Part shown: positions 27,482-64,000 of the stretch, one piece after another
How the letters are laid out: each line of letters begins with the position of its first letter
Position numbering within the stretch: position 1 is the first letter of the stretch
DNA from: a virus
Strand: one strand, 5' to 3'
DNA: 64,000 nt
Virus record (IMG/VR): IMGVR_UViG_3300027733_000034
Span: 67,533-131,532 of that record
Translations under genes and position numbers: made by a program
The notes under the pieces: model-generated
The model's input: only the letters and a program-made list of their open reading frames with translations
The model's database searches: none
What the model was told of the DNA's origin: nothing

Positions 27482-29146
27482 TTACATGAAACGTTCTAAG
27501 AAGTATTTTGGTAAATGTTTTTTATTACTTGTTACCGCCTTAACTGCCGCGCCGTCTAAAATATAGGTTACTGAATGATCTTTAATTGACCTCGTGCATC
27601 GACCACTCATTTGAATCAGTGTATCTAACATCTTCATACCATAATATTGAGGATTTTTATCGAATTGTTTCTTAATTCTTTTAGAACCTAACGGCAAATA
27701 CGGAGCCTTTATAATGATTTGAAATCTACCAAGATCATCATCCAGGCTTACTCCTGTGTCTAATGAAGGGCTAACCAAAATAGTATCTTCATCTACTCGA
27801 GACTTGTGCTCTTTGATAATATCTTCATTAGAAACTCCGGTATCTCTAAATAAAAATCTATTGTTTTTATTAAATTTTCGTTTAACCTGCTCAGTAATGG
27901 CTGTGGTATGGGTGTGTATCAATCCTTTCTCTCCTTTATGTGATTCACATATCTTAGAAACCATCTCTAACACCTTAGGAAGATTGACTTCTAGGGTCTT
28001 AAATGATAGGCTATACTTCGAAGAACAATAGATAGGAGATTTTGATGCTTCGAAAACTGAATCGGTATCAATAAACTCATAGTCTTTCTCTGAAATACCT
28101 ATACTTTTAGCATATTCTTGTACATTGCTGATGGTTGCAGACATTAAAAGCACATGATCTGCCATTTCAAACAATTCTTTTGCTAAAGGTTTGATGTCAA
28201 AAGGTACAAATGTAACTTCTTTAGCATCTTTACTTTCTACTAGATATTGACAAGATTGCCAATTCAAAACTACATCCATAACTGCATTATAAAGACTGGT
28301 CAATTTACCCAGTCTTTGTTGTTGTTTAAACAACAAACTTTCAAATCCATTTTTATTTGACATTAAAGATACTTTTTGTTTTACATCTGCCACCAGATCT
28401 TTTAATTGCAAATATATATCATGAACCCATAGTCCGGCTTCTTCACTATCATCTGAAATTACCTTCTTGAATACAATTTCTTCTGCTGCTAATTGAGCAT
28501 AATTTAATGTCACGGAGTATTGACCCACTAATTCACTTTCAATTTTATCTGCTTCATCAAATATAACAAACTGTCTACGTTGTAAAAATTTAGGCATATT
28601 AAAATATGCTCTATAATTCAATATAGGATCATTTGAAATTAAAGCATTTTTTCGAACCTTGTAATAAGGACATCTATCTTCTTCAAAACATTCTTGTTTT
28701 AATTTAGAGCTAAACAAACAAGGAGCAAAATCTACTGTTACATTGGGATCTACTGCACAATTATAATTATTTTTACCCTTCGCAGCAATGGCTTCTGGAA
28801 ATAATTCTAGGTATTGATTCTGTAAAGATCTAGTTACGGTTAATATTGCTGATCCATAAGATGATCCAGACAAGAAGGTTTCCTTGTGAAGATATTCACC
28901 GTTTTGATCTCTTTTGAATGCTTTATAACTATCTAAAAGAGATCGCCTGGTTTCATCTATTTTATTAGAGGACCTTGCTATCGCCGTGGCTATATGAGAT
29001 TTTCCTGATCCCGTAGGTAGTCTAGCTATAACAAATTTTTTACCAGATGAAAATTTCTTATAAATTTTCTCTAAGGCATCAATTTGCTGTGGTCTGGGTG
29101 TTGGGCCCGGAAAGTTGTTCAAAAAGTTTGATATATTTGTTTTCAA
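27482..29146 (-). CDS. DinG/Rad3-like SF2 helicase with probable Fe-S cluster
   Basis: PRPQQ, LPTGSGKS, FDEAD, MSAT, QMSGR..R; four Cys (NC..APC..C..CPYY); TTG start. Confidence 0.88.
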   Translation of the reverse strand: MKTNISNFLNNFPGPTPRPQQIDALEKIYKKFSSGKKFVIARLPTGSGKSHIATAIARSSNKIDETRRSLLDSYKAFKRDQNGEYLHKETFLSGSSYGSAILTVTRSLQNQYLELFPEAIAAKGKNNYNCAVDPNVTVDFAPCLFSSKLKQECFEEDRCPYYKVRKNALISNDPILNYRAYFNMPKFLQRRQFVIFDEADKIESELVGQYSVTLNYAQLAAEEIVFKKVISDDSEEAGLWVHDIYLQLKDLVADVKQKVSLMSNKNGFESLLFKQQQRLGKLTSLYNAVMDVVLNWQSCQYLVESKDAKEVTFVPFDIKPLAKELFEMADHVLLMSATISNVQEYAKSIGISEKDYEFIDTDSVFEASKSPIYCSSKYSLSFKTLEVNLPKVLEMVSKICESHKGEKGLIHTHTTAITEQVKRKFNKNNRFLFRDTGVSNEDIIKEHKSRVDEDTILVSPSLDTGVSLDDDLGRFQIIIKAPYLPLGSKRIKKQFDKNPQYYGMKMLDTLIQMSGRCTRSIKDHSVTYILDGAAVKAVTSNKKHLPKYFLERFM

Positions 29147-29375
29147 TTTCTTTTAATATATCTAAATTTAAATTTTTTTGCACGCAGGAACATGGAGTAT
29201 GTGTAAAATTTTCTGTTTGTATTCCTCTAAATCCTCTCCCGTAACATTTATTACAATTTTTACTAGAATTTTTTTTAAGAGGCAAGTATCCGAGTCCTAT
29301 ATTTTTGAGATCTTCTTCTAAAAGATTACAAAAAGTACCAGAAAATACATTAAAACAAATGTGGATGTTATTCAT
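29079..29375 (-). CDS. Small Zn-finger protein
   Basis: CNKCYGRG...PCSC. Confidence 0.6.
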   Translation of the reverse strand: MNNIHICFNVFSGTFCNLLEEDLKNIGLGYLPLKKNSSKNCNKCYGRGFRGIQTENFTHTPCSCVQKNLNLDILKEIENKYIKLFEQLSGPNTQTTAN

Positions 29376-29727
29376 GACAGGTTATGGTTAAAATATTATC
29401 CCAGTATTTGTTTTTAACACCTACTGAGGGATATACTTTTAAATAATTTTCTACTTCCGGTGCTAATTTTGATAGAGTCTTAATTCTATAATCAAAATAC
29501 ACTAAATTATCCTCTGAATGAGTTTCTATAGCAAACGGAATGGGAATTTCTATCTTATCTTTATCTCTTTTCAATGTATTAATGATAAAAATAAGATAAA
29601 AATTTTTCTGATAAAAAAGAATTAACTGGCCCTGTTTAAAAGTTTTATTATTTAACTCAAAAGAAACCTGTCTCTGTAGTAGAGATTTACAAGTTTCTTC
29701 TAGTGAGGGGTTTTCTGCTATTATCAT
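29368..29727 (-). CDS. Hypothetical protein
   Basis: 119-aa ORF overlapping both neighbours in an operon. Confidence 0.65.
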   Translation of the reverse strand: MIIAENPSLEETCKSLLQRQVSFELNNKTFKQGQLILFYQKNFYLIFIINTLKRDKDKIEIPIPFAIETHSEDNLVYFDYRIKTLSKLAPEVENYLKVYPSVGVKNKYWDNILTITCHE

Positions 29728-30113
29728 AAATTCATAAATGCAGCTTTTTGAGAAGCTGACATAGTCACTAGATTCTCTTTAAAGTACTCCCAAAACAATT
29801 CTGGAGGTGAAGATGGAATAACTTTAATCAATTCTATTCCCTCTGATGGAATTGCTCTCCAATTTTGCATAAAAAGATCAAACACAATGATTAATCCTTT
29901 GGATGCTGGATTGTAAGGAGCACCTTGACCAGGTGGTTTAAAATTAAAAACAGAACGTCCGATATCTGAATCTAGAATATTTGGATCTAGTGTCGCTAAC
30001 ATTCTACGAGTAGTTGGAGAATCTGGCTTGGGATTGCGTCTGTTAAATTTAAATTCTGCTACATTAGAAGTTAATAAAGAAGCTAAGCCGGAACCGGAAA
30101 TGACAGAAGACAT
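29724..30113 (-). CDS. Hypothetical protein, WYL_2/SH3-like beta-barrel
   Basis: V.EFKF....TRRMLATL...VFDL...NWRAI pattern of conserved T4-like small proteins. Confidence 0.55.
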   Translation of the reverse strand: MSSVISGSGLASLLTSNVAEFKFNRRNPKPDSPTTRRMLATLDPNILDSDIGRSVFNFKPPGQGAPYNPASKGLIIVFDLFMQNWRAIPSEGIELIKVIPSSPPELFWEYFKENLVTMSASQKAAFMNL

Positions 30114-30115
30114 AT

Positions 30116-30499
30116 TTATTCAGTTAAAGTACAAACTCCAAAAATGCGATCTTCATTTAAGAAAGCAATATTTCTTAAACCATTTAGGTTATTAACCTTT
30201 AGTCCTCGATCATTTGGAAAGATGACAAAATCTCCTACCTTAACAGTTTCACACTTAGGTCCTGCTAGTATTACTCGAGCAACTCGCCAGGTATATTCTA
30301 CAGCATTAATAGGAATCCATAAATTCCCTCTCTTAATCTCTGTACCTTCATCATTAATGTCTGCGAATTGAACCATTAAGATGTTATCTAACACTTGGGT
30401 TAGTTGCCATCCTTCTAATTCAAAACTTTTACCAGCATAGTGTTCAATTTGAACTTTTCCTCCAATGCGATCTTCTAAGTCTACGGGTCTATCAATCAT
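30116..30499 (-). CDS. groES: GroES-like co-chaperonin
   Basis: DNILMV, RGNLWIP, ARVILAGP...VKVGDFVIF, FLNEDRIFGV. Confidence 0.8.
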   Translation of the reverse strand: MIDRPVDLEDRIGGKVQIEHYAGKSFELEGWQLTQVLDNILMVQFADINDEGTEIKRGNLWIPINAVEYTWRVARVILAGPKCETVKVGDFVIFPNDRGLKVNNLNGLRNIAFLNEDRIFGVCTLTE

Positions 30500-30501
30500 A
30501 A

Positions 30502-30894
30502 TTATTTTTTGTTTAAGTGTTCCAACGCTGAATTGTATATATGCAATTCTCTTACCGAGATCTCCATATTATTAGCCAATGTTTCTATATTATCAACCTC
30601 ATCTACTTTATTTGTTTGAGTAGTTTTTTTAATATAATTTATTTTTTTACTAATACGGGGCAATAATGTTCTATAAATTTTACCAGCTAACAGTCCTTCT
30701 TTGGCTATTAATGTTTTATATGTCCAACGATTAAAAGTGACATTTACTATTTGAGCCAATGAAGGATCTATCATTGATAACCATCTATTGGTTATAAAAA
30801 TAGATGGAATATCATTTTCATCTGGTTGTACTGAATTCTTCTTAAGAATCCAATTTAAAAAAGGAAATAAATTGTCTTTGTAATTGGGTTTCAT
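30502..30894 (-). CDS. Possible clamp loader small subunit (gp62-like)
   Basis: FITNRWLSM....IVN, LLPR..K..YIKK, LANNMEIS.RE resemble gp62. Confidence 0.5.
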   Translation of the reverse strand: MKPNYKDNLFPFLNWILKKNSVQPDENDIPSIFITNRWLSMIDPSLAQIVNVTFNRWTYKTLIAKEGLLAGKIYRTLLPRISKKINYIKKTTQTNKVDEVDNIETLANNMEISVRELHIYNSALEHLNKK

Positions 30895-31484
30895 TAAATA
30901 ACTTTTGTAGTAGCAATGAAGCAATCATTTAATATCTGATCAAAAATATTTGCTACATCAAACACCAATTCTTCAACAAATTCTTCTGTCAAAAATAAAG
31001 AAAATGCAAAACTTGGAGCTTTAGACCCTGCTGAAATATTAAGTCCTAAATGACCTAATGCAACACTATCTGTAACCTTAGTAATACTCACACTGGCTTT
31101 ACCAAATTCTTCTGCATTGTTTTCACCCATGCCTTTCTTACGAAGCATTAGATCATCACCCTTAACTTCTACATCAAACAAACCATACTTGTCTGTACGA
31201 AATAGATTAGCAATTTCCTGAACAAACAAACGCTGAAAGAATACCGCTCCAATAGCATTCATATTTGGAATCTCCCAACAAAAACTCAAAGCATCATCTG
31301 AATAAATGAAATCTTCTGAAAGTTTGTCTTCTAAATCAATTAGATTGGCTTTGACATCCATGTTACCTCTGGTGGTATAAAGAACTCCAAGAGGAGAATA
31401 TTGTTTGCGATATACTTTATATCCAAAACGGCTGTGAATAAAGGAGCCGTCATAATCTGCATCTGCGTATACTATTGATCTCAT
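30894..31484 (-). CDS. DUF366-like protein (class II aaRS/biotin-lipoate ligase-like fold)
   Basis: YDGSFI, G.MDV..LIDLED, IYSDDAL.F..E, AVFFQRL, GDDL, K.SVSI, HLGLNI. Confidence 0.7.
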   Translation of the reverse strand: MRSIVYADADYDGSFIHSRFGYKVYRKQYSPLGVLYTTRGNMDVKANLIDLEDKLSEDFIYSDDALSFCWEIPNMNAIGAVFFQRLFVQEIANLFRTDKYGLFDVEVKGDDLMLRKKGMGENNAEEFGKASVSITKVTDSVALGHLGLNISAGSKAPSFAFSLFLTEEFVEELVFDVANIFDQILNDCFIATTKVI

Positions 31485-31500
31485 AGGTTAAATTTAACTG

Positions 31501-32190
31501 TTAATTGTTTTTAATCCCGTATTTTTGAATAAATCTTTGAGCACTGGTATTCCATTCTGGTGTATTCATACTATCACCCAGTCCGTGATGTACTACTCTA
31601 ATAGGCAACACTCCACATTTTACTTTTTTAGAATTACAATCTAGACAAAATGTGATATCATAATGATGGAATGTAAAATCCTCATCAAATTTGGCTCCTT
31701 TAGAAGTTGTTGCTTCTACATCTACAGCCAAAAATAATCCATCCATTACCAAGGCTCTTGAATTGGTGGGACCAAAAGAAGTTGTCCATACTCGATTTTC
31801 TGAAGTATGTGCCACTTCACCTACATGAGTAGACCAATCTGACATTAAATGCCATGCTGGTGGTTTGCTCAAATCTACAGTTGTTGCTCCAGCAAGTCCG
31901 GTAACATCATATGGAGAATTTAGAAGTTTTTCTACTAAAAAAACATCTTCTAATTCCACATCATCATGCACAAACAACAAAATATCATTTTTATGTTTGT
32001 CGTTGTATAAAAACTCATTATAAAGTTCAGGAAGACCTCTTTTGTTGTCTTTTACAACATAAAAATCAAATTCTTTGGTGCTTCTTAATATGTTTTGTTT
32101 TTCTAAGGATTTAAAAATAGGTTTTTGTTGCCATTCTTCTAATGTTTTTGCCTCCGTGGCAGAAACTACATATACTCTTTTGTTCTTCAT
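31501..32190 (-). CDS. GT-A (GT2-like) glycosyltransferase
   Basis: LPELYN, LLFVHDDV (DxD-type), GLAG, MDGLFLAV, FDEDF.FHHYD..FC, HHGLG. Confidence 0.8.
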   Translation of the reverse strand: MKNKRVYVVSATEAKTLEEWQQKPIFKSLEKQNILRSTKEFDFYVVKDNKRGLPELYNEFLYNDKHKNDILLFVHDDVELEDVFLVEKLLNSPYDVTGLAGATTVDLSKPPAWHLMSDWSTHVGEVAHTSENRVWTTSFGPTNSRALVMDGLFLAVDVEATTSKGAKFDEDFTFHHYDITFCLDCNSKKVKCGVLPIRVVHHGLGDSMNTPEWNTSAQRFIQKYGIKNN

Positions 32191-32825
32191 ATAAAATACG
32201 GGTTTGTGTAATTAAAATTGTTTATTTTTTTAAATTGATTACCTTTAAATTCAAAAATAATACCATCTTCTTCTACGTGATGAGAATCTTTAAATTGCGT
32301 AGAAGAAAAAGAATCTGAATTCATCCACAAAGAACTTCCAGCTTTAACAAGATATATGGTTTGATCCCAAACTATCCAACTAGTAAGTAATCCTTGATAG
32401 TTGGAATACGTTTCTACTATATTATAGGTCCTTATTAAATCATAAGGTATTAATTGAGTGTCTACCTCAAATCCTAAATTTTTATTAAGTTCTTCAAAAT
32501 TTGTTATAATGCCATTATGAGCTACATAACAATTATCTTCTTTAAAGGGATGGGAAGTGTTTGCAGACCAGTTAGTTTCTGTGCTATTGGTAGGAGCTCG
32601 TGAATGAAAAAGAAAATAATTGAACTCATTACGGCTTTGATTTTTTTTCCAAATTAAAGAATCTCTGTCTTTCTCTGTAAAAGGATTTTTTTGTTTGTAT
32701 ATAAAATTTGATCCTGTATTGGTATTTAATGCCAATAAACTAGATGAATAACTACCTCTAGGTAAATTAAGTTTGTAAAGATTAAAGGCTTTTTCTAGGT
32801 CTGAAGATCCTGCTATTCCACACAT
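32187..32825 (-). CDS. Class II (Ntn) glutamine amidotransferase, stand-alone
   Basis: N-terminal MCGIAG, HSRAPT, HPF, HNGIITN, VDT; directly downstream of queC. Confidence 0.88.
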   Translation of the reverse strand: MCGIAGSSDLEKAFNLYKLNLPRGSYSSSLLALNTNTGSNFIYKQKNPFTEKDRDSLIWKKNQSRNEFNYFLFHSRAPTNSTETNWSANTSHPFKEDNCYVAHNGIITNFEELNKNLGFEVDTQLIPYDLIRTYNIVETYSNYQGLLTSWIVWDQTIYLVKAGSSLWMNSDSFSSTQFKDSHHVEEDGIIFEFKGNQFKKINNFNYTNPYFI

Positions 32826-32826
32826 T

Positions 32827-33564
32827 TTATTTAATTTCTACACAATTATACTTCACCCAATCAATTTTTCTACTGTAATTAATTGGATCTATTAATTTTG
32901 CTTGAATAAATCCTGCTAAACGAGCTGAACAACTAGGACATTCACCACATGCTTGTAAGTGTTCTGTATAACAGGTGCGAGTTTTAGTAAAGTCTACTCC
33001 CAATTCTACTCCGTATTCTATAATTTCTTTCTTGGTCTTTTCTATCAAAGGAGCTTCTATTTTAATTTGATTTCTCCTATTTAAAGACAAAATGGTATTT
33101 AATCTATTACGAAAACCCGGAGTACAATCCCAAAAACCCGATGTGTCATCTGCCTTCGCCGCTCCATATAAAACTGTATCTGCATTACAACTCTCTGCCA
33201 TTCCAACTGCTAATGATAAAAATATCATATTGCGATTAGGTACATAAGCATCATTTTGAGGATCTCCAATCACCTCTTTCATTTTAGGGACCGCTATATC
33301 TGTCTGTGTCAAGGCTGATTTAAATCCAATACTTTTGAGAGGAACTTCTATTTTCTGGAATCCGATAGATTTTTGTTCTTTATCAAAAAGAGAAACAATA
33401 GTATTTGAAGCAACCGCTATTTCTGTAGCATTACGTTGACCGTAATCTATTAAAAGAGCTGTTATTTTATCATAATTTCTCATTGCATGATACAAAACCA
33501 CGGTACTATCCATACCACCACTAAATAAAACTACACAAGATTTAGGAGAATTTGAAGTATCCAT
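32827..33564 (-). CDS. queC: 7-cyano-7-deazaguanine synthase QueC
   Basis: SGGMDS, DYGQR, YVPNRNMIFLS, TCY...CGECPSC..R. Confidence 0.93.
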   Translation of the reverse strand: MDTSNSPKSCVVLFSGGMDSTVVLYHAMRNYDKITALLIDYGQRNATEIAVASNTIVSLFDKEQKSIGFQKIEVPLKSIGFKSALTQTDIAVPKMKEVIGDPQNDAYVPNRNMIFLSLAVGMAESCNADTVLYGAAKADDTSGFWDCTPGFRNRLNTILSLNRRNQIKIEAPLIEKTKKEIIEYGVELGVDFTKTRTCYTEHLQACGECPSCSARLAGFIQAKLIDPINYSRKIDWVKYNCVEIK

Positions 33565-33576
33565 GTGATAAATAAT

Positions 33577-33604
33577 ATTATAATGAAAAAATCTGGTAAG
33601 ACAA
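33577..33604 (-). promoter_or_regulatory. sigma70-type promoter TTGTCT-16-TATAAT for the queC operon
   Basis: Perfect -10 ending 12 nt before the queC ATG; plausible -35. Confidence 0.55.
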
Positions 33605-34161
33605 CAATAAAAAAGAAAAACTCCGCTTCCAAGCAAAGAATTGGTGGAGAAGTCAAACGTATTCTTAAAGCCAATATTAAAGGAGAAGAATGTGGATGTG
33701 AAGAAGGATATATTCCATTTGCCAAAAGTTTTATTACATTTTTAGTCAAAGAAGCTGATGAAGCTCCTGTGGGAGATGCAAAAACTCCGGAACAATTCAC
33801 TCCGGATCAAAATCAAAAAGATTTTGAAGGTTCATTGGAGCAGGGAACTGATGCTGGTAAATTTGATACACAAGGAACAGATCCAGCTATTACTGCAAAT
33901 GCTATTACTGCAGTTAAAGAATGGAGTGAAAAGTTGGCAGAATTTGCTAGTTTCATGAATAATCCAGATAGCCAATCTTTGCACAAAATCCTAGCTGCAG
34001 AAGACAGACCCGGTTCCCTCCTGCGTGGAGTAACTCGCAAAGCATCTGATAGTATTACGCGTATTGCTGGAGAAATTGAAAAGTTAAAAGAAGTTCTTAA
34101 CGGATTTATTATTATGGCTCCAAAGAAAGAACGAGATGCAGAACAGCTTAAAATGGGTTAG
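33583..34161 (+). CDS. Hypothetical protein (late; possible internal head protein)
   Basis: TAAATA 8 nt upstream; basic N-terminus followed by SFITFLVKEADE. Confidence 0.6.
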   Translation: MKKSGKTTIKKKNSASKQRIGGEVKRILKANIKGEECGCEEGYIPFAKSFITFLVKEADEAPVGDAKTPEQFTPDQNQKDFEGSLEQGTDAGKFDTQGTDPAITANAITAVKEWSEKLAEFASFMNNPDSQSLHKILAAEDRPGSLLRGVTRKASDSITRIAGEIEKLKEVLNGFIIMAPKKERDAEQLKMG

Positions 34162-35126
34162 ATTTGAAACAACGAATTTAAAATTAAATCATAAGGTATT
34201 TCGTCGATTCCTTCTTTTACAGCCCATTCATTGAAATCTTTAAATGGACTATCGGAAGGCCAGCGGAATACCTTTTGTTTTTGCATTAATAGCCTATGTA
34301 TCTTCTCCTTGGCTGCTTGATCTTTTTTAGGGTTATCCAATACCCAGATCTTTTCATGAAATGCAAATTCACTGAGTTGTTTTTCTTGAGTATTTGTAAG
34401 ATCCAATCCAGCCAAACATACCCCATTTTTAACAAACATGGAGTCTATAGGCCCTTCAAATATGAATATATACTCTAAATTGGTATCTATTCGATCTATG
34501 CCAAAAACTGTTTTTTCATAACCAACTTTATTAAGGTATCGAGGATCAGAACCATCTAAAGCTCTTGTTTGATAAAACGGTATCTTTCCGTTTCTGTCAT
34601 AAAACGGAATACAAAGTCTATTTTTATGAAAAAAATCTGTAAAACTAATATAAAAATTTTTACATTTATTAATAGCAGTATTAATTCGTCTCTGTTCAAT
34701 ATATTCTAAAACTTTTATAAAATCTGAATTGCTTTTATAATAATCTTGCTGTTGTTTATCATTTAAATTTATAGAATCAAATGGCAATGCGGGTTTTTCT
34801 TTACGCGTAACAGAAGCACTTCTGTTTACATCCAATTCAATTGAATTATCTCCGGTTTGAGCCTCTTGTTCAATTTCTTCCCTAGTAAGCCCGGAAGATA
34901 ATTGTATGTAAGTGAAAGCATTCCAACTTTTACCATCTCCACAATGAAAACAATAAAAAGAGTTGGTTGAAGGATAGAAAAATAATCTTCTTTTCTTCAA
35001 CCAACTCTTTCCTTCCCTACAAATATTGCAGGAAGCATTATAATTTCCGTCAAACTTTCTAAATGTAGGTTCCCCGGCGTATGTGTAAAATTTACTTAAA
35101 ACATAATGTCCAGGTAACTGCTTCAT
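34158..35126 (-). CDS. DNA primase (gp61-like)
   Basis: Zn finger CNIC...CFHC, RLCIPF, QTRAL, TOPRIM FEGPIDSMF, VLDN, KDFNE. Confidence 0.93.
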   Translation of the reverse strand: MKQLPGHYVLSKFYTYAGEPTFRKFDGNYNASCNICREGKSWLKKRRLFFYPSTNSFYCFHCGDGKSWNAFTYIQLSSGLTREEIEQEAQTGDNSIELDVNRSASVTRKEKPALPFDSINLNDKQQQDYYKSNSDFIKVLEYIEQRRINTAINKCKNFYISFTDFFHKNRLCIPFYDRNGKIPFYQTRALDGSDPRYLNKVGYEKTVFGIDRIDTNLEYIFIFEGPIDSMFVKNGVCLAGLDLTNTQEKQLSEFAFHEKIWVLDNPKKDQAAKEKIHRLLMQKQKVFRWPSDSPFKDFNEWAVKEGIDEIPYDLILNSLFQI

Positions 35127-35153
35127 TTAAGAAGTATATCTGATATTTAAAAA

Positions 35154-36083
35154 TTACTCACGACTGTTTGATTTAAAAATATCTGAATAAGCTTTCATCA
35201 TATCAAAATTCTCATATTGAGAACCGAATTCTGGTCGTTCTCCCCATTCTGAAGCGTATTTATTGATGGTATCTTCTGCTCCGTAGTCTCTTTCGTCACC
35301 TTCTCTGTCAAAGGTATCTACTTCTCCAGAACCTTCTCCTTCTTCTTGTTCTGGTTCTTTTTCTTCCACAGCGACATAACCGTCTCCTTCTTTCTTCAAT
35401 AATCCCTTAGAAGTTAATTCTTTTAATTTTGAAGTTATAAAACGTTCATCTTCTGCCTTATCGTCCTGTACAGCGGCTGCTCTGCCAGCTATATATTTGA
35501 CAATTTCTTCTTCTGTGGACGGAGTTTCTCCACCATCTTTTACATACTCAAAGACTTTCTTGGTCCAATAATCAGATAGAGGATCTTCTGGAATGTCCAT
35601 TGAAGGTTTTGAAGATTTTTCTGGTTCCTCAGAAGGTTCTTCCAGTACTTCTTCATCCCCAGAAGATTCTTCATCAGGAACAATTTCAGGAACTTCATCA
35701 GATTCAAATTCTTCTGGTTGTTCACCTTTGCCATCAGTAATTTCAGATGGTTTCTCTGGTTGGTAACCAAAGTCATAAATGGCCTGACCCAAGGTGCGGG
35801 TCCAGTATTTGGCTGCTGTGCCACCAAATCCCTTACGCTTCAAAAAGGTGTCTAATAATCTTTGTATTTCAGAATAATCTAAAGTTCTATCTCCATTATC
35901 AGTAAGAAATTCCCCCAAAAATGTCAACATTTCTGCTCCGGTATATTTTCCGGCTTGGGTGACTTTTGCCCTCCCCACGAATGATGGAGTTTTGATAGGA
36001 GACTTAGGAATACCAACTGTACCTCTTTTAGGTGCAGCCATTTCTTCTAGATAATTTTCACAAAATGTATTAAACAAACTCAT
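35154..36083 (-). CDS. Acidic hypothetical protein (possible internal head protein)
   Basis: MSLFNTFCENYLEEMA start, Glu-rich linkers, TAAATA upstream. Confidence 0.6.
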   Translation of the reverse strand: MSLFNTFCENYLEEMAAPKRGTVGIPKSPIKTPSFVGRAKVTQAGKYTGAEMLTFLGEFLTDNGDRTLDYSEIQRLLDTFLKRKGFGGTAAKYWTRTLGQAIYDFGYQPEKPSEITDGKGEQPEEFESDEVPEIVPDEESSGDEEVLEEPSEEPEKSSKPSMDIPEDPLSDYWTKKVFEYVKDGGETPSTEEEIVKYIAGRAAAVQDDKAEDERFITSKLKELTSKGLLKKEGDGYVAVEEKEPEQEEGEGSGEVDTFDREGDERDYGAEDTINKYASEWGERPEFGSQYENFDMMKAYSDIFKSNSRE

Positions 36084-39395: not shown

Positions 39396-39925
39396 TACTC
39401 TATTATAGCGTCAATTATAGCTTCCTCAACCATTTCTGGGGGTAAAATTAAAGAAGCTTCTTTTATAAGGTCTTCTACCTGTTCTAGTTTAACTTGTAAA
39501 TTTTTCTTAAAATTATAAGATTCTAAGAAATTTTCTTTTGTTTTTTCTTTTATATTAGAAGATTCTTGTAAAATTAAAGTTTCTAACAAGGGTTCGCAGC
39601 TATGTGATATGATTCCCACTAATCTTTTGTAAAATCTATCTAACGGAGATTTATAACCTTCTTTTGTAGTCGGTTCTTTAATTTTGCTTATTAAATAATT
39701 TAACAACACAGTACTTTCTGCCTGGGTGCTGGTTTTATTTAAAAATTCCGGACCTCTTACATGTATTGATCCGTATGGATTATAAATACATCCACCTCCT
39801 AAAGATGTATTTCCGCAGTACATACATCCAGTAGGGGTCATATGTACGTGAGTATGTGTAGGTGAATACAAGCAACCCAAACCAAAATATTCTGATTCAC
39901 AGTAAATGCAATGAGATTTATACAT
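39395..39925 (-). CDS. Hypothetical protein with two Cys/His repeats
   Basis: CIYCESEYFGLGCLYSP..THVH and CMYCGNTSLGGGCIYNP..SIHV. Confidence 0.65.
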   Translation of the reverse strand: MYKSHCIYCESEYFGLGCLYSPTHTHVHMTPTGCMYCGNTSLGGGCIYNPYGSIHVRGPEFLNKTSTQAESTVLLNYLISKIKEPTTKEGYKSPLDRFYKRLVGIISHSCEPLLETLILQESSNIKEKTKENFLESYNFKKNLQVKLEQVEDLIKEASLILPPEMVEEAIIDAIIE

Positions 39926-40355
39926 AATTATAATTAACTTCTTCTTTTATTAAATTTTTAGGAGCTTTTCCTATACGTACATTGATTATCCCATTATAAT
40001 AATCTTCTCTAAACATAGCCCCTCTTAATATCTGAGTTTCTATCTCATAATAGGCCATTTCCCACTTACAGGTACAGGTTTTTAAAATAAGAAAATTAAA
40101 ATTTTCTTTACCCAAACGTTCTATATCTGCATTTAATTTTTCAGAAGAACTTGTATAGGTTTTCCAGTCAGATTCTTTAATAGTTAATCTTTTGCGAAGT
40201 TTGCCTTTAAGAGGTTTAAGTCTTCGTTTAGACATACATTGTTTTTTACCAACATATATTTTATTTTCTATTTTGTTGGTTATTTCATATATAAACCCAA
40301 AAGTTTCTTCTGTTAAAATAACTCCGGGTACTACACTCCAATGACCAGTATCCAT
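39918..40355 (-). CDS. GIY-YIG nuclease (T4 endonuclease II/DenA-like)
   Basis: FGFIYEITN...K.YVGKK, ESDWKTYTSSS..L..D, Y.E, YYNG.I. Confidence 0.8.
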   Translation of the reverse strand: MDTGHWSVVPGVILTEETFGFIYEITNKIENKIYVGKKQCMSKRRLKPLKGKLRKRLTIKESDWKTYTSSSEKLNADIERLGKENFNFLILKTCTCKWEMAYYEIETQILRGAMFREDYYNGIINVRIGKAPKNLIKEEVNYNYV

Positions 40356-49281: not shown

Positions 49282-49282
49282 T

Positions 49283-50832: not shown

Positions 50833-50864
50833 ATAATATTTTTATAACTATAAAATAATAAATT

Positions 50865-54078: not shown

Positions 54079-55896
54079 GTGAAGCGAGTAATTTTTAAAT
54101 CTGTAAAAATACAAAATTTTCTCTCTGTAGGAGAAACACCTCTAACATTAAATTTTCAAAGTGGTATCTCTATTATAACTGGAGAAAATAGAGACAAAGG
54201 AGGGAGGAATGGTGTAGGTAAAAGCACTATTGTAGAATCTTTATATTGGTGTCTGTTTGGTAACACCATGAGAGAAATTAAAAGAGAGAGAATAGTTCAT
54301 AGACAGTCAGATGGCAATTGTTGTGTAGTGTTAGAATTTGATGTAGTCTCATCGAATAAAGTAAATGCATACACTTTAATAAGGACCATCTCTCCAAATT
54401 CTGTAAAATTGTATTGCAATGAAGAGGATATTACCCTCTCCTCAATGCCTAAAACGGATGAAAAGGTTAAAGAACTCATAGGAGCCAATGAAGAAGTGTT
54501 TCGTAACGCAGTCATTATGGCTGCTAATAACACCTTGCCTTTCATGGCTCAAAAGAAAGTAGATAAGAGAAAATTTGTAGAAGGCATATTACAGTTAGGT
54601 ATTTTTAGTGAAATGCTTTTACAGATCCGGCTGGATCATAATGATTTAAAAAAAGAAAATGATCTTTGTAGTACAAAATTTATAGAAAAACAGAAAAATT
54701 TAGAAATTTACAATAAACAATTTCAAAAAACAGAAAATGTTAAAATTGAAAAAATAGATAATTTAAAAACCAAAATATCTATAAATAAAGAAAAAATAGA
54801 AACTGAATCTAAATTAGATTTAAATGCTTTGGAACAAGAAAAAAATGACTTGTTAAATTCAATTTCTAAAAAAGAACAAAAAATTAAAAAATTAGAAGAA
54901 TTATCTTTAGATTGTTCTGGATCATCAGACTTTCTGAAAAAACAAGAAAATTTGTCTTCATTTAAAATTGCTCAATTAAAAAAAGAATTAGAGGCATTAA
55001 AAGAAAAAACTCAAACATGTCCTACCTGTAAGAGATCTTATGAAGACCATGATAAAAAACACATAGAAGAATTGTGTAATGATATTGATGTAAAAATTAA
55101 AACAGAAGAAGAATCTAAAAAATTATTAACAGCAGATATTAAGCAAAAAAATAAAGATTGCAAAGATATAGTAGAAGCAATCAAAACATTAAACACACAA
55201 ATTAAAAAAGATTCAGACAGTATACATAATTTTTCTATAATTTCTAAAGAAATCAAACACTTAACAGACATAAACAATTCTCTTCAAAAAGAAATTGAAG
55301 AAATTCAAAATTCTAAAAATGAATTTGAAAGTTTAATATCAAATATTAAAGAAGAAATTGCTGAAGAAGAAACTAAATTGGAAGATTTACAAAAAAGAAT
55401 TTCAGTTCTAGAGGTGGCAAAGTATGTAGTATCAGAAGAAGGGGTGAAGACCTACATTATCAAGAAAATGTTAGTCATTCTCAATTCTAGATTAAATCAT
55501 TATTTGCAAATTTTAGAAGCTCCGTGTAAATGTGAATTCAATGAAGTGTTTGAAGAAACCATTCATGATGAGTATGGAAAAGAAAGCTCTTATTTTAACT
55601 ATAGTGCCGGAGAACAAAAACGAATAGATCTAGCTATTCTTTTTATGTTTCAAGATTTGTTAAGACAGCAAACAGGTACATCCTTTTCCTTGAGTATGTA
55701 TGATGAATTATTTGATTCTGCTATAGACGAGAAAGGTGTAGATAAAATTTTAGACATTTTAAAAGATAGAGTTGAAAAATTTCAAGAAAACATTTATATT
55801 ATCTCACACAACACTCATACCTCTAAATCAGGTGTGGATCAGATTATTCTTTTAGAAAAACACAACGGAGAAACAAAATTAATTGAACAAATTTAA
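54079..55896 (+). CDS. Recombination ATPase gp46 (Rad50/SbcC-like)
   Basis: NFLSVG, NGVGKST, Zn hook CPTC, YSAGE..RIDLA, YDELFD, ISH; GTG start. Confidence 0.95.
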   Translation: MKRVIFKSVKIQNFLSVGETPLTLNFQSGISIITGENRDKGGRNGVGKSTIVESLYWCLFGNTMREIKRERIVHRQSDGNCCVVLEFDVVSSNKVNAYTLIRTISPNSVKLYCNEEDITLSSMPKTDEKVKELIGANEEVFRNAVIMAANNTLPFMAQKKVDKRKFVEGILQLGIFSEMLLQIRLDHNDLKKENDLCSTKFIEKQKNLEIYNKQFQKTENVKIEKIDNLKTKISINKEKIETESKLDLNALEQEKNDLLNSISKKEQKIKKLEELSLDCSGSSDFLKKQENLSSFKIAQLKKELEALKEKTQTCPTCKRSYEDHDKKHIEELCNDIDVKIKTEEESKKLLTADIKQKNKDCKDIVEAIKTLNTQIKKDSDSIHNFSIISKEIKHLTDINNSLQKEIEEIQNSKNEFESLISNIKEEIAEEETKLEDLQKRISVLEVAKYVVSEEGVKTYIIKKMLVILNSRLNHYLQILEAPCKCEFNEVFEETIHDEYGKESSYFNYSAGEQKRIDLAILFMFQDLLRQQTGTSFSLSMYDELFDSAIDEKGVDKILDILKDRVEKFQENIYIISHNTHTSKSGVDQIILLEKHNGETKLIEQI

Positions 55897-55900
55897 TATT

Positions 55901-56653
55901 ATGACAGAAAACAATTATCTATTGATTAGTGATGATGGTCCAGGATTTCACACCATTGAAGGAGAAGGCCGATTAATCGGAAAACCCAGTATCTTCTTAC
56001 GTTTATTTGGATGCAATTTGACATGTAAAGGATGGGCTACTCCTGATTCTCCCTGGGGTTGTGATTCCTTTATCTCATGGTCCAAGAAAAACAAATGGAC
56101 ATTTGAAGATATCTTTAAATTTTATGAAGAAAATGGTCTTGTTGAGAAGCTTTTAAGAGGAGATATCTGGAAATTGACTGGCGGAGAACCTTTCTTACGC
56201 CAAGAACCACTATTAGATTTTGTAGAAGAATTTGTCAGTCGTTATAAACAAATTCCAACTATTGATTTTGAAACCAATGGCACCATTAAACCTAATGATA
56301 CTTGGTATGATACCTACGAAGCATCCTTTACAGTATCACCGAAGTTATCTAGTAATGGAGATCCAAAAGAAAGAAGGTATCAACCAGAAGTTTTAGATTG
56401 GCATGCTAAACACAATTCTTGTTTTAAGTTTGTAGTTAATTCTAAAGAAGACATGGATGAATTGTTTGAAAATTACATTAATTCTAAAGAATTTTATATT
56501 AATCCAAGCAATGTATGGCTTATGGTATGTGCAGGTTCCCGAAAAGAACATGTAGAGAGAGCAGCATATGTAGCAGAGTTAGCCAAGGAACATGGTTTTA
56601 ATTTTTCACCAAGACTTCAGTTAGTAATTTGGGATAAAGCTCTTCGTGTATAA
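55901..56653 (+). CDS. queE: 7-carboxy-7-deazaguanine synthase QueE (radical SAM)
   Basis: TIEGEG..G.P..FLRL.GCNL.C...CDS, TGGEP, ETNGT, SPKL, KFVV, SPRLQ..IW. Confidence 0.9.
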   Translation: MTENNYLLISDDGPGFHTIEGEGRLIGKPSIFLRLFGCNLTCKGWATPDSPWGCDSFISWSKKNKWTFEDIFKFYEENGLVEKLLRGDIWKLTGGEPFLRQEPLLDFVEEFVSRYKQIPTIDFETNGTIKPNDTWYDTYEASFTVSPKLSSNGDPKERRYQPEVLDWHAKHNSCFKFVVNSKEDMDELFENYINSKEFYINPSNVWLMVCAGSRKEHVERAAYVAELAKEHGFNFSPRLQLVIWDKALRV

Positions 56654-58039: not shown

Positions 58040-60610
58040 ATGTATCGAAATGTCTTTTATGATTCTGCTAGACAAGCTGTCCATTTATGGACTTGGGATG
58101 AAAATGGTAAGAGAATTAAGATAGAATCTAGCTATGAACCATATCTTTATGTAGAATCTATGACAGGAGTAGACGCTATTTCTATTTTTAATACACCTTT
58201 AAAGAAAATTAAGTTCAAAAATCAGTTTGATCGCAACCGTTTCGTTAATGAAACACCAATTAAGCGCCTATTTCATAACCTAAGTTGTGAACAAGACTTT
58301 CTTTTAACCACATTTAAGGATGAATTACACAAACCAGAGGCATTACATCGCTCTCTGAAGGTCTTTTGGCTGGATATTGAGACGTATAGTCCAGATAGAA
58401 TGCCGGATCCACACAATCCAGAGGACCCAATCAATCTAATCACCCTATGTGATTCACTTTCCAACCATTATTACTCGTGGGGCACAGGTCCTTACAAACC
58501 AAAAGACAGCAATGTTACCTATGTTCAGTGTAAAAGTGAGCGGGATCTATTACAAAAGTTCCTAAATTTTTGGTCATCAGACCATCCAGATGTGTTAGCT
58601 ACCTGGAATGGAGAGGGATTTGATGTTCCTTACATCATGAATCGACTAGGGAATCTCTTAGGAGAAGAGGAAACAAGCAGAATGTCACCAGTCAATTCTA
58701 TCTACTATAGGGAAAACGTAGCGATGAATAAGTTCGGGAAGATGATTAATAGATGGTACATCCGAGGCGTTAGTAACATTGATTATATGGAAGTGTATAA
58801 GACATTTTCCCGTGGAGATAGAGAATCTTATTCATTGAATTACATCGGCGAACATGAATTAGGTGAAGGGAAAACAGATGTAGGTGGTCAAAACCTAGCA
58901 AGTCTATCAGAAGAAAATTGGGAATTGTTTGTAGATTACAACATTCAGGACGTTAAATTGCTGGTTAAATTGGATGAAAAGCTTAAATTCATTAAATTGA
59001 TTAGAGCCCTTTCCTATAAAGGATTCATCCCATTTGAACAATCATTGGGTAAGGTGTCTATGATCACAGGAGCAGTGGCTCATCAAGCAGTAATACAGGG
59101 TTATAGAATTCCTACCTTCAAGAATGATGGCTTGAGAGATGAATATGTAGGTGGATATGTACACGAACCAGAAAGAGGTTTAAGTAATGCCGTAGTCAGT
59201 TATGATGCAAACAGTTTGTATCCAAATACAATCATCACTCTTAACATTTCACCAGAAACTAAAATAGGTCGCATTATTGAAGTGGTTGGTGGAGAGTATA
59301 CTATTCGTCTAGCAAACGAAAAAACCATAACCATAGACAAAGAAAAGTTTGATAGGCTTGTCCAAAAAGAACAATTAGCCATATCAAAGTATAATGTCCT
59401 CTATACTCAAAAGTTTAAAGGTGTTGTACCTAATTTAATTAACAGAGTTTACGGAGAACGTGTTTCTATTCGAGCAATGGTATCTAAATTAATGGATCAA
59501 GTTAATGAAACATCGAATCCAAATTCTAAAATAGAACTAGAAGCAGAGATTTTAAACCTAGACACTATTCAAAATGTGTTAAAGTTAATCCTAAACTCTA
59601 TCTATGGAGTCTTTGCTCAGAAATATTCTCCTCTATTTGACATTGAACACTCTGCTAGCATTACATTGACAGGCCAAGCAGTAGCAAAACAAGCATCAGA
59701 GATCGCATATCAATTTGCAAAAGACAAAGGAGTTACAGAAGATAAGAAAAAAATATACATTTATGGGGACACGGATAGCTGTTACTTTAGTATTGCTCCA
59801 ATTTTGTCCAAATTAAATGCTAAACTTTTAGAAAACAATAAGCTTACATCTAAAGCTCGAGAGGTTTTGGCGGAGATTGATGTATACCTCAATGCTAGAA
59901 TTATTGAATGGGCAGCAGCAGAACTCAAATCTACAGATCCGCGCTTTGTATTTAAGCAAGAAGCTGTGTGTGATGTAGCATTCTTTCAAGAAAAAAAGAG
60001 ATATATCCTACATGTTATAGAACAAGAAGGCAAGATTCCTAAGAAACCTTTCAAGTATGTAGGAGTAGAGGTGGCCCGCTCCACTATTTCTCGGCCAGTT
60101 AAAAATTTAATCATGCAAGTGATTGAAAATGCGATGTTAGCTCAAGATAAAAAGAAAGCAGATGAAATCTTTCGCAAGGCTTATGATGAATTTTGTACTT
60201 TTAAAATAGAAGATGCTTCGATTCGCAGTAAAATTTCAGATTATGAAAAGTATGAGGCTCGGATAGGAGAGATGGGACAGACTGGTAAAGGTACACCTAT
60301 TGGACCTAAAGCTGGTATTAGTTATAACAATCTTCTTAAGAAATTAAAATTGGAACACAAGTATGAACCAATTGGTAGTGGAAGAAAGATCAAATACTTT
60401 TATACTTCACGTAACAATTACAATTATAAAGTGATGGGATTTAATGAAAGTTATCCTCCAGAACTGAAAGAAGTAGTTGGATTGAATTACCAATTTATGT
60501 TTGAAAAAATACTTGCACCACCTATTCAACGGTTCTATGATGGAGTAGGTTGGATTCTACCAACACCAGGCAGAGAAGTTCAAACAGATTTATTTGATCT
60601 TTTCCAATAA
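58040..60610 (+). CDS. Family B DNA polymerase (gp43-like)
   Basis: Exonuclease LDIET, WNGEGFD, YNIQD; polymerase YDANSLYP, K.ILNS.YG, YGDTDS, KKRY; no intein seen. Confidence 0.97.
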   Translation: MYRNVFYDSARQAVHLWTWDENGKRIKIESSYEPYLYVESMTGVDAISIFNTPLKKIKFKNQFDRNRFVNETPIKRLFHNLSCEQDFLLTTFKDELHKPEALHRSLKVFWLDIETYSPDRMPDPHNPEDPINLITLCDSLSNHYYSWGTGPYKPKDSNVTYVQCKSERDLLQKFLNFWSSDHPDVLATWNGEGFDVPYIMNRLGNLLGEEETSRMSPVNSIYYRENVAMNKFGKMINRWYIRGVSNIDYMEVYKTFSRGDRESYSLNYIGEHELGEGKTDVGGQNLASLSEENWELFVDYNIQDVKLLVKLDEKLKFIKLIRALSYKGFIPFEQSLGKVSMITGAVAHQAVIQGYRIPTFKNDGLRDEYVGGYVHEPERGLSNAVVSYDANSLYPNTIITLNISPETKIGRIIEVVGGEYTIRLANEKTITIDKEKFDRLVQKEQLAISKYNVLYTQKFKGVVPNLINRVYGERVSIRAMVSKLMDQVNETSNPNSKIELEAEILNLDTIQNVLKLILNSIYGVFAQKYSPLFDIEHSASITLTGQAVAKQASEIAYQFAKDKGVTEDKKKIYIYGDTDSCYFSIAPILSKLNAKLLENNKLTSKAREVLAEIDVYLNARIIEWAAAELKSTDPRFVFKQEAVCDVAFFQEKKRYILHVIEQEGKIPKKPFKYVGVEVARSTISRPVKNLIMQVIENAMLAQDKKKADEIFRKAYDEFCTFKIEDASIRSKISDYEKYEARIGEMGQTGKGTPIGPKAGISYNNLLKKLKLEHKYEPIGSGRKIKYFYTSRNNYNYKVMGFNESYPPELKEVVGLNYQFMFEKILAPPIQRFYDGVGWILPTPGREVQTDLFDLFQ

Positions 60611-60617
60611 TATTTTT

Positions 60618-61466
60618 ATGAAAAAACCATTAATTGCTCACGAAGCTCCTTATATGATTATGAGAGAGGTACAGCAAATGACAGACTATGATTACTGTCT
60701 CGTACATCTCTTGGAAGAAGATCCCAAATACCTAGAATACTTTAGAGAAGCTAAAGAAAAGGGACGATACATCATTATGGATTGTAGCTTGTTTGAACTT
60801 GGACATGCGTTTAATCCAGAATTGTATTACAATTGGATTAAAGAAATTCAGCCAGATGAATACATTGTTCCAGATGTATGGCAAGATTATGAAGACAATC
60901 TAAGATCGTTTAAAGCATTTTCAGAATTATTTGACCTTACTAAATTAAAAGGCAAACGCATAGGTGTCTTACAAGGAAGAACCTATAGAGAATTTATAAA
61001 CGCATATCAATTTATGGAAAAAGAATGTGATAAAATTGCTGTAAGTTTTGGATATGATTATTTTTGGGATAACCATTCAGAAGATTGGAAAGATAATCCT
61101 TATTGGAAAAACACAGAATATACACTAGAGTTTGAAAAAACAGTAGCCAAACCAACCTCATATGCTAGTGGAAGAAATCATTTGATAAAAAGTTTAATCT
61201 CTAGTGGAGTGTGGAATAAAAACAAACCACATCATTTATTAGGTTGTGGTATTCCTATAGAATTTAAAACACATTTTGAAGGAGTGGAAAGCATTGATAC
61301 ATCTCATCCAGTTATGACTGGATTTTTCGGTAAATCTTATAAAAATATAGAATCAACTTACAGCAAAATTCATAACAAGATGGTAGATGTATATGATGCA
61401 GAAGTTGACCTTGTTCAAAGAATCTTAATTAAAGAAAATATAGAACTTTTTTCCACACTACTATGA
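60618..61466 (+). CDS. TGT-fold deazaguanine transglycosylase (DpdA-like)
   Basis: IMDCSLFE, PDVWQD, GVLQG, HHLLG, SIDTS motifs in TGT/DpdA order; que genes nearby. Confidence 0.68.
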   Translation: MKKPLIAHEAPYMIMREVQQMTDYDYCLVHLLEEDPKYLEYFREAKEKGRYIIMDCSLFELGHAFNPELYYNWIKEIQPDEYIVPDVWQDYEDNLRSFKAFSELFDLTKLKGKRIGVLQGRTYREFINAYQFMEKECDKIAVSFGYDYFWDNHSEDWKDNPYWKNTEYTLEFEKTVAKPTSYASGRNHLIKSLISSGVWNKNKPHHLLGCGIPIEFKTHFEGVESIDTSHPVMTGFFGKSYKNIESTYSKIHNKMVDVYDAEVDLVQRILIKENIELFSTLL

Positions 61467-63771: not shown

Positions 63772-64000
63772 ATGAGTATTTTATTAGAAAAAAGTCAATT
63801 TGAATCCACCAAAGTAATTGAATTGGGCAGCTGTGCATTTAGACAATGGAAAGCAAATTCTCATTGTAAATTTATTCATGGATATCAATTAAAAGCCAAG
63901 CTTTGGTTTGGATGTAAGGAGCTGGATGACAAGAATTGGTCTGTAGATTTTGGAGGATTGAAAGATCTTAAAAAAATTCTACAAGAACAATTTGATCACA
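63772..64000 (+). CDS. queD: 6-carboxytetrahydropterin synthase QueD (partial; runs off the window)
   Basis: Translated by hand: MSILLEKSQFESTKVIELGSCAFRQWKANSHCKFIHGYQL...LDDKNWSVDFGGLKDLK..L...FDH, with C...HG and DF..LK...DH motifs. Confidence 0.88.
   Translation, partial: MSILLEKSQFESTKVIELGSCAFRQWKANSHCKFIHGYQLKAKLWFGCKELDDKNWSVDFGGLKDLKKILQEQFDH

Follow-up and report, generated by a model that had tools for sequence, protein, structure and literature searches.

The 7-deazaguanine genes of the uncultured T4-like phage studied here probably constitute a DNA-modification system that is dispersed over the genome. The window, which is the whole stretch of 64,000 nucleotides that was analysed, belongs to a contig that is 61% complete and ends inside QueD, and it carries a tightly packed row of genes for QueC, a class II glutaminase (Gat), a glycosyltransferase (GT) and a DUF366 protein. 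On the basis of the identities, co-occurrence and synteny established here, it is reasonably probable that QueC, Gat and DUF366 are parts of this system together with QueE, DpdA3, QueD and an inferred FolE2, with GT acting on some other acceptor.

Organisation of the four-gene row

All four genes lie on the minus strand. The preQ0 (7-cyano-7-deazaguanine) synthase QueC (32827..33564, 245 aa from its ATG, the ORF being extendable to 33636 from a TTG start) matches PF06508 (E 5.4e-56) and phrog_1550, and it passes the cut-off of the TIGR00364 equivalog of NCBIfam (166.5 versus 150.3 bits). It is followed by Gat, a free-standing class II (N-terminal nucleophile) glutaminase of 212 aa (32187..32825; phrog_18128, E 1.4e-13), whose GATase_6 match (E 1.6e-4, 22.1 bits) falls under the 27-bit cut-off; by GT, a glycosyltransferase of GT-A fold and 229 aa (31501..32190; PF13712, Glyco_tranf_2_5, 33.7 bits versus a cut-off of 27 bits); and by the DUF366 protein, of 196 aa and with a biotin/lipoate-ligase-like fold (30894..31484; PF04017, 67.8 bits versus a gathering cut-off of 29.9). 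These family profile matches bear out the identities given in the original prediction (QueC, class II amidotransferase, glycosyltransferase and DUF366), and the ORFs are arranged exactly as it had claimed, with 1 nt between QueC and Gat, a 4-nt overlap between Gat and GT, and 16 nt between GT and DUF366. The four-gene region had no match among isolated phages by megablast.

The proposal that these genes form one four-gene unit behind a sigma70-type promoter holds only in part. The candidate TTGTCT-16-TATAAT (33577..33604, minus strand), which is located 13 nt 5′ of the QueC ATG and agrees at 10 of 12 positions, is the top-ranked sigma70-like site in the interval 29000-35200. Such sites are, however, not enriched in this AT-rich interval (34 found versus 27.8 +/- 5.4 in shuffles), and the row extends beyond these four genes: the start codon of the following gene overlaps the stop codon of DUF366 (TAATG), and no terminator-like site was found 3′ of DUF366 on the minus strand. 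Tight gene coupling within a variable phage slot is weak evidence of a shared pathway.

A probable dispersed DNA-modification system

The row had been linked to phage 7-deazaguanine DNA modification, and this link is upheld by a DpdA3 homologue, QueE and QueD within the same window, all on the plus strand. The QueE-like radical SAM enzyme (7-carboxy-7-deazaguanine synthase; 55883..56653) matches phrog_2076 (E 6.3e-47) and, with scores under the respective cut-offs, several QueE equivalogs, while QueD (6-carboxytetrahydropterin synthase; 63772..63999; PF01242, E 9.5e-10; phrog_2389, E 3e-19) is cut by the contig end. The DpdA3-type DNA guanine transglycosylase (60594..61466, 290 aa) is missed by the PF01702 profile and was recognised by its similarity to phage DNA guanine transglycosylases, matching the annotated enzyme of phage immuto_2-6A over 94% of the protein (E 3e-52, 39.6% identity) and showing 33% identity to a CP220 protein. 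A 436-aa protein beside QueE was considered as the missing DpdA and rejected, as its similarity is to gp163, a GT-B glycosyltransferase of phage phi92; a sequence search with it against the PDB returned nothing significant. A large glycosyltransferase island is situated at 44088-54034.

The route from GTP to preQ0 (FolE, QueD, QueE, QueC) is generally regarded as complete. The complete relative G001 (227 kb) possesses the same four-gene row together with QueE, DpdA3, a full-length QueD of 153 aa and FolE2 (PF02649, E 1.1e-64), and it is from this relative that FolE2 is inferred for the phage of the window. QueF was not found in G001, nor was FolE of the PF01227 type found in the contig or five relatives. 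Among 11 related genomes that are at least 90% complete, QueC, DUF366 (at the Pfam level) and DpdA3 occur together in seven and are all three absent from the other four.

These genes might instead raise preQ0 or queuosine for host or phage tRNA and leave phage DNA unmodified, given that QueC, QueD, QueE and DUF366 are ordinary neighbours in the tRNA-queuosine pathway of bacteria and that a gene resembling a preQ0 transporter accompanies the que genes of some phages. We regard this as highly improbable, since the window encodes a DpdA3 homologue, which co-occurs with QueC and DUF366 in all seven positive near-complete genomes, and since a search for tRNA-type TGT with PF01702 (the profile that misses DpdA3) found none in the contig or five relatives. 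Furthermore, the DpdA3 subfamily has been reported from phages whose DNA guanine is completely replaced (PMC10516641).

Gat as a probable partner of QueC

Comparison of sequences and loci indicates that Gat is most likely the ammonia donor of QueC. Across 11 orthologues Cys2 is nearly invariant and both H103-N104-G105 and D122 are invariant, and we take Cys2, the HNG motif and Asp122 to be the catalytic residues by comparison with GlmS; a sequence search of Gat against the PDB gave nothing significant. Of 80 Gat loci, 63 have QueC immediately upstream, and the pair is found without GT in loci L227, L230 and L236 and in the cultured Vibrio phage 2.275.O, where the row consists of QueF, a YhhQ-like transporter, QueC, a free-standing Gat and FolE. 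As QueF uses preQ0, the QueC-Gat pair of this Vibrio phage should make preQ0, and the presence of QueF alongside QueC-Gat in other phages argues, if indirectly, for a preQ0 product and against G+. The final base is most likely dPreQ0, with dG+ and dADG as possible products. PMC10516641 links the Gat-QueC fusion found in Enterobacteria phage 9g and in Crenarchaeota to archaeosine/dG+, and by analogy with phage 9g Gat may make the amidine instead of merely feeding QueC.

The original prediction had also offered the alternative that the QueC-like protein and Gat act on a glycan or another substrate. Action of the two on a glycan is unlikely, because QueC passes its equivalog cut-off and QueC-Gat lies beside QueF and FolE in the Vibrio phage with no GT nearby. 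In a further reading, Gat would work on a glycan or an amino sugar with GT and the many other sugar enzymes of the phage, preQ0 would be made by QueC alone and the adjacency of Gat and QueC would be incidental. Such a role would fit the 4-nt Gat/GT overlap, which recurs in three of four loci from a lineage about 30% identical, the glycosyltransferase island, and a nucleotide-sugar epimerase/dehydratase-like gene that stands between Gat and GT in L161 and directly after Gat in L227; it would also fit the nearest Gat matches among isolated phages, which come from other systems and are class II glutaminase domains of a generic kind. We nevertheless consider this reading very unlikely. GT is directly adjacent to Gat in only 22 of the 80 Gat loci as against the 63 with QueC directly upstream, the QueC-Gat pair is seen without GT in L227, L230, L236 and the Vibrio phage, and none of the four deazaguanine-free genomes retaining GT has Gat (G005 having been tested directly). 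Fused Gat-QueC proteins also exist, as described in PMC10516641 and as annotated in Bacillus phages.

DUF366 and the preQ0 pathway

DUF366 most likely helps preQ0 synthesis and is not a DNA-decorating enzyme. This follows from its tracking of QueC and DpdA3 and from its position next to queC and queE. In addition to the near-complete genomes above, QueC is present in all 11 DUF366-bearing records of at least 50 kb, and a distantly related lineage, whose DNA polymerase is about 40% identical, retains both genes even though DUF366 is tens of kb from QueC. Neighbours were also sought, by a phmmer search of low sensitivity, in 80 cellular DUF366 loci that span many bacterial phyla and include some archaea: 53 of these have queC and/or queE next to DUF366, with QueC directly upstream in 39, QueE directly downstream in 37 and both in 23. 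In the remaining 27 this insensitive search revealed no QueC or QueE beside DUF366, and the four of these loci that were inspected had mostly unrelated neighbours. Operons of the form queD-queC-DUF366-queE occur in Armatimonadota, Brevinematales, Bacillota, Planctomycetota and others, and the placement of DUF366 between queC and queE in these preQ0 operons points to precursor synthesis rather than DNA decoration. A role as substitute for a missing GTP cyclohydrolase was rejected, as G001 encodes FolE2.

The ligase-like fold that had been attributed to DUF366 proved right. The predicted model (pLDDT 93.9) matches PH0223 of Pyrococcus horikoshii (PDB 2ddz) with a TM of 0.74-0.77 (E 2.4e-12, 24% identity) and biotin/lipoate ligases with a TM of about 0.5 (9-16% identity). 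All family motifs (VDxED, GDD, KxSVS and HxGxN) are retained in the protein of the window, and the lysine of KxSVS is invariant in 15 cellular members. These motifs have been lost from the DUF366-like genes of three GT-DUF366 loci and three DpdA3-GT-DUF366 loci, from each of which QueC is absent. A 58-sequence profile search detected no long fused DUF366 forms at E <= 1e-5, which is weak evidence, and tblastn against isolated phages detected no DUF366 except for a partial match (32.7%) in Microcystis phage MaAM05. Our literature search found no paper naming DUF366, PF04017 or COG2029. Should the proposed role be correct, DUF366 would be a fifth protein that accompanies QueC in phages, bacteria and archaea, and thus an unrecognised helper of one step of preQ0 synthesis.

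The glycosyltransferase

GT probably lies outside the deazaguanine pathway and is a resident enzyme for another acceptor. Its model (pLDDT 90.7) has as its best PDB match majastridin (2qgi/2nxv, TM 0.64-0.70), followed by other GT-A enzymes, some of them UDP-bound, while a sequence search against the PDB gave nothing significant; the HDD (DXD) motif is invariant in 14 orthologues, and tblastn found no GT in isolated phages.

The original prediction was that GT and the ligase-like protein add a sugar and/or an acyl group to the deazaguanine side chain, either as free base or in DNA, giving a base beyond dPreQ0, dG+, dADG and dPreQ1. Several observations fit this proposal: GT has the GT-A fold and an intact DXD motif, is translationally coupled to Gat and is flanked by QueC and DUF366; a second glycosyltransferase, the GT-B gene, adjoins QueE; and the fold of DUF366 resembles that of adenylate-forming ligases. 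GT is also within 5 kb of Gat in 74 of the 80 Gat loci, and their adjacency occurs in three gene orders and extends to proteins only about 30% identical. In the GT tree, most rows (81 of 107) have QueC or Gat as a neighbour, half of those loci having been collected with Gat as the query. The proposal is nonetheless unlikely and is not sustained by the distribution of either protein. The complete genome G005 is devoid of QueC, Gat, DUF366, QueE and DpdA3, yet it retains GT (53% identical, in the same slot and with HDD intact) and the GT-B gene, and GT likewise persists with its conserved motif in G048, G056 and G058, from which QueC, DUF366 and DpdA3 are absent. The GT of G005 was considered as a truncated remnant, which was rejected in view of its full-length ORF and intact motif. 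Furthermore, QueC, Gat and DUF366 were not seen in 33 of 80 GT loci, GT occupies two variable genome slots where homing endonucleases and other cargo are also found, and DUF366 sits inside ordinary bacterial preQ0 operons, with neither Gat nor GT seen in any of the 80 cellular loci by the low-sensitivity phmmer search.

There is no positive sign of a glycosylated deazaguanine, although GT usually adjoins Gat; given this frequent adjacency, a functional tie of GT to the deazaguanine pathway is possible. In a narrower form, restricted to phages that possess GT as well as the deazaguanine genes, GT, perhaps with the GT-B enzyme beside QueE, would attach a sugar to the 7-substituent of a deazaguanine that DpdA3 has inserted into DNA, and the relatives having GT alone would use another acceptor. 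We hold this to be quite unlikely; if true, the sugar transferred by GT would give the first glycosylated 7-deazaguanine in DNA.

Proposed course and comparison with known systems

Returning to QueC, Gat and DUF366 as parts of the dispersed system, and taking the known preQ0 pathway as a model, GTP would be converted to 7-carboxy-7-deazaguanine (CDG) by FolE2, QueD and QueE, and CDG would be converted to preQ0 by QueC using ammonia from glutamine that is putatively hydrolysed by Gat. The ligase-fold protein DUF366 would assist the QueC step, and DpdA3 would then exchange guanine of the phage DNA for the deazaguanine base, presumably preQ0. Complete guanine replacement affects restriction, CRISPR cutting and the sequencing of such genomes.

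The DpdA3 phages described in PMC10516641 have in common with the phage of the window a DpdA3 homologue (39.6% and 33% identity, as above), a T4-related myovirus background and phage-encoded QueD, QueE and QueC; the system presented here differs in its free-standing Gat and its DUF366, in having no QueF and in the use of FolE2 instead of FolE as cyclohydrolase. With the window, the DpdA3 group gains an aquatic T4-like lineage. With the Gat-QueC fusion of phage 9g and Crenarchaeota, as presented in the same source, it shares a class II glutaminase with a QueC module and conserved glutaminase residues, whereas the fusion has an N-terminal Gat in a single polypeptide and the present proteins are encoded by two ORFs, 1 nt apart, with QueC first. 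The T4 alpha- and beta-glucosyltransferases act on a modified base in DNA, on which they depend, and are of GT-B fold, in contrast to the GT of this study, which is of GT-A fold and persists without deazaguanine genes. The fold of PH0223 matches that of DUF366, and the fold of the biotin/lipoate ligases resembles it, in both cases at low sequence identity. Finally, the bacterial queD-queC-DUF366-queE operons contain a DUF366 of the same family and with the same motifs, accompanied by QueC and QueE as in the phage; the phage differs in that its genes are spread out, accompanied by Gat and coupled to a transglycosylase that acts on DNA.

Gene content and expression unit

The 131.5-kb source contig, of which the window forms the second half, derives from an uncultured virus and is estimated to be 61% complete; the virus is a T4-like myovirus, with genes for gp20 portal, gp15, prohead protease, UvsX, UvsY, B-family DNA polymerase and primase. 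Identification of ORFs combined with Pfam, PHROGs and NCBIfam searches confirmed a row of four co-oriented minus-strand genes, encoding QueC (32827-33564, above the curated QueC equivalog cut-off), the class II glutaminase Gat (32187-32825, a weak GATase_6 match), the GT-A glycosyltransferase GT (31501-32190) and DUF366 (PF04017; 30894-31484), the latter two above their Pfam cut-offs. QueC and Gat are separated by 1 nt, Gat and GT overlap by 4 nt and GT and DUF366 lie 16 nt apart. Gat commences with Met-Cys and its glutaminase residues are maintained across 11 orthologues.

The original prediction placed these four genes behind one sigma70-type promoter. The top sigma70-like site within 29000-35200 is indeed located 13 nt 5' of the QueC ATG, but such sites are not more frequent in this region than in shuffled sequence, and the unit is not confined to four genes: since the ATG of the next gene overlaps the DUF366 stop codon and no terminator-like site was found 3' of DUF366, the expression unit runs on beyond DUF366. 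A divergent 198-aa ORF of no known family (33565-34161, plus strand), retained next to primase in every close relative, leaves almost no spacer to QueC; its GTG abuts the QueC ATG, and both promoters must therefore lie within each other's coding regions.

The proposed link to the 7-deazaguanine pathway holds, as the window also encodes a QueE-like enzyme (55883-56653), a QueD truncated where the contig ends (63772-63999) and, between the DNA polymerase and ThyX, a 290-aa protein (60594-61466), all on the plus strand. The 290-aa protein belongs to the DpdA3 type of DNA guanine transglycosylase, with matches also in Campylobacter phage CP220 and relatives; a Pfam TGT search of the contig yielded no match, this protein included. 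Passages of PMC10516641 describe DpdA3 as a subfamily too distant for earlier identification and found with complete guanine replacement. The related genome G001 (227 kb, rated 100% complete, syntenic with the window) holds the identical four-gene row together with QueE, DpdA3, full-length QueD and FolE2, while QueF was not found in it. Given QueC, QueE, QueD and DpdA3 in the window and the full set with FolE2 in G001, this gene content indicates that the phage almost certainly puts a 7-deazaguanine into its own DNA.

DUF366 and preQ0 synthesis

QueC is present in all 11 DUF366-bearing related records of at least 50 kb. Of the 11 relatives with a completeness of 90% or more, seven (G001, G054, G057, G059, G061, G062 and G063) carry DpdA3 together with QueC and Pfam-level DUF366, and four (G005, G048, G056 and G058) have none of the three, these genomes being kin and the four negatives occupying about three separate places on the GT tree. 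In a distant lineage (DNA polymerase approximately 40% identical), DUF366 is located upstream of unchanged neighbours and QueC, Gat and GT follow UvsX, so positioned that DUF366 and QueC are tens of kb apart and both retained.

When a single genome of each prokaryote species was scanned by pattern, 119 relatives were obtained. The best 80 loci, which span numerous bacterial phyla and include some archaea, were searched for neighbours by phmmer using single phage proteins as queries. In these best 80 of 119, the immediate upstream neighbour in the same orientation is QueC in 39, and the immediate downstream neighbour is QueE in 37; one or other adjoins DUF366 in 53 loci and both in 23, with QueD further upstream in 16, while Gat and GT were detected in none. 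For the 27 loci without a detected QueC or QueE neighbour, the search was possibly too weak; neighbours in four that were inspected were mostly unrelated. A radical SAM gene directly upstream of DUF366 in an Archaeoglobales MAG (L106:4992-5882) was missed by the phage QueE query, and the number of loci in which DUF366 adjoins que genes is therefore probably an underestimate. A search for longer, fused forms of DUF366 with a 58-sequence profile recovered none at E <= 1e-5, weak evidence against a QueC-DUF366 fusion.

DUF366-like genes located beside GT in loci lacking QueC (three GT-DUF366 and three DpdA3-GT-DUF366 loci) have lost the signature motifs of the family, every one of which is retained in the window, and the DUF366-like copy of G048 (complete) is no longer recognised by Pfam. 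Such degenerate genes occur at L242:5669-6196, L244:5645-6178, L246:4791-5309 and L249:4385-4873, some directly after DpdA3; in L239 and L240 the gene appears as two separate matches, as if broken. We conclude that DUF366 belongs to the deazaguanine pathway and is a probable, hitherto unrecognised component of preQ0 synthesis.

The ligase-like fold originally attributed to DUF366 was borne out by its confidently predicted structure (pLDDT 93.9), which matches PH0223 (2ddz) at a TM of 0.74-0.77 and biotin and lipoate protein ligases at approximately 0.5. [quoted passage not shown] A literature search returned no paper containing DUF366 (whole word), PF04017 or COG2029, entries in supplementary tables being possible; PH0223 returned an interaction screen and 2DDZ unrelated matches only.

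Gat as a probable partner of QueC

Of 80 viral loci centred on Gat, 63 have QueC as the immediate upstream neighbour. The simplest role of Gat would be glutamine-dependent ammonia supply for QueC, because the pair co-occurs with QueF, which consumes preQ0: one complete relative at least, G059, combines QueC and Gat with a QueF that scores above the Pfam cut-off. Both G059 and G063 carry QueC, Gat and a two-domain QueF-like gene near DpdA3; given the latter gene, their final base may be a preQ1 derivative, unlike that of this phage's lineage, where a family search did not find QueF. In PMC10516641, the Gat-QueC fusion protein of phage 9g is associated with archaeosine in DNA (dG+), and by analogy dG+ is a possible product here, QueF being absent.

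The cultured Vibrio phage 2.275.O has a separate, unfused homologue that spans 99% of Gat, in the row QueF, YhhQ-like transporter, QueC, Gat and FolE (L315, 333209-337242), which does not include GT; the split pair thus also exists in an isolate, a jumbo phage. Elsewhere among isolated phages, Gat matches glutaminase domains belonging to amidoligase clusters that are unrelated. Some relatives (L161, 5642-6652; L227, 5496-6572) have an additional gene (337-359 aa), either placed between Gat and GT or, if GT is missing, immediately following Gat; a GxGGFIG motif at the N-terminus of its product marks it as a candidate nucleotide-sugar epimerase/dehydratase.

GT is maintained independently of deazaguanine

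The suggestion that GT glycosylates the deazaguanine to give a new base was not supported. In favour of a link between GT and the pathway, 74 of 80 Gat loci have GT no more than 5 kb away, in the orders QueC-Gat-GT-DUF366, QueC-GT-Gat-DUF366 and QueC..Gat-GT without DUF366, and the distant lineage shows the 4-nt Gat/GT overlap again in three of four loci. Against such a link, complete genome G005 lacks QueC, Gat, DUF366, QueE and DpdA3, yet has a full-length GT with the invariant HDD motif in the same slot and also retains the GT-B gene, while G048, G056 and G058 have GT without QueC, DUF366 or DpdA3. Among 80 GT-centred loci, Gat occurs in 38, QueC in 30 and DUF366 in 27, whereas 33 have none of these within the flanks examined; conversely, L227, L230 and L236 carry QueC-Gat without GT.

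The GT tree (108 rows from 140 matches, with sequences at least 95% identical collapsed, and omitting matches below 180 aa as well as loci scored "alone" whose flanks were short) requires only five changes for presence or absence of a deazaguanine neighbour and two for slot; about 16 of its rows form a diverse clade in which GT stands alone. The two GT slots, on the primase and UvsX sides, also accommodate a homing endonuclease, small ORFs and a gene whose N-terminal sequence suggests an epimerase/dehydratase. The GT model adopts a GT-A fold, with the UDP-binding protein majastridin as its nearest match, and does not reveal the acceptor. We conclude that GT is maintained for a job independent of deazaguanine, a second job on deazaguanine being unlikely. 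The independence of GT is qualified by the strong Gat-GT linkage; the original prediction is partly supported, being correct as to the pathway.

Further sugar-related genes are present. Approximately 13 co-oriented plus-strand genes at 44088-54034, including GT2-type and GT1/GT4-type glycosyltransferases and a methyltransferase, mostly lack counterparts in G001 and G005, where the islands carry other sugar genes, and the row resembles a hypervariable island of glycan-related genes. Directly after QueE, a 436-aa GT-B-like protein (56686-57996, plus strand) is 23% identical to gp163 of phage phi92, itself within a row of four glycosyltransferases, and has a 62.6% identical counterpart in G005, a genome devoid of deazaguanine genes. 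SegE-like GIY-YIG (39918-40355) and TnsA-like (22828-23292, inside the head-gene block) endonuclease genes, both on the minus strand, are likely mobile or homing elements.

Comparison with known phage systems

In tblastn searches of isolated phage genomes GT had no match and DUF366 only a partial one (32.7%, Microcystis phage MaAM05). The present system is a phage deazaguanine system of the DpdA3 type with three distinguishing features, namely separate genes for QueC and Gat, the use of FolE2, as seen in G001, and the presence of DUF366.
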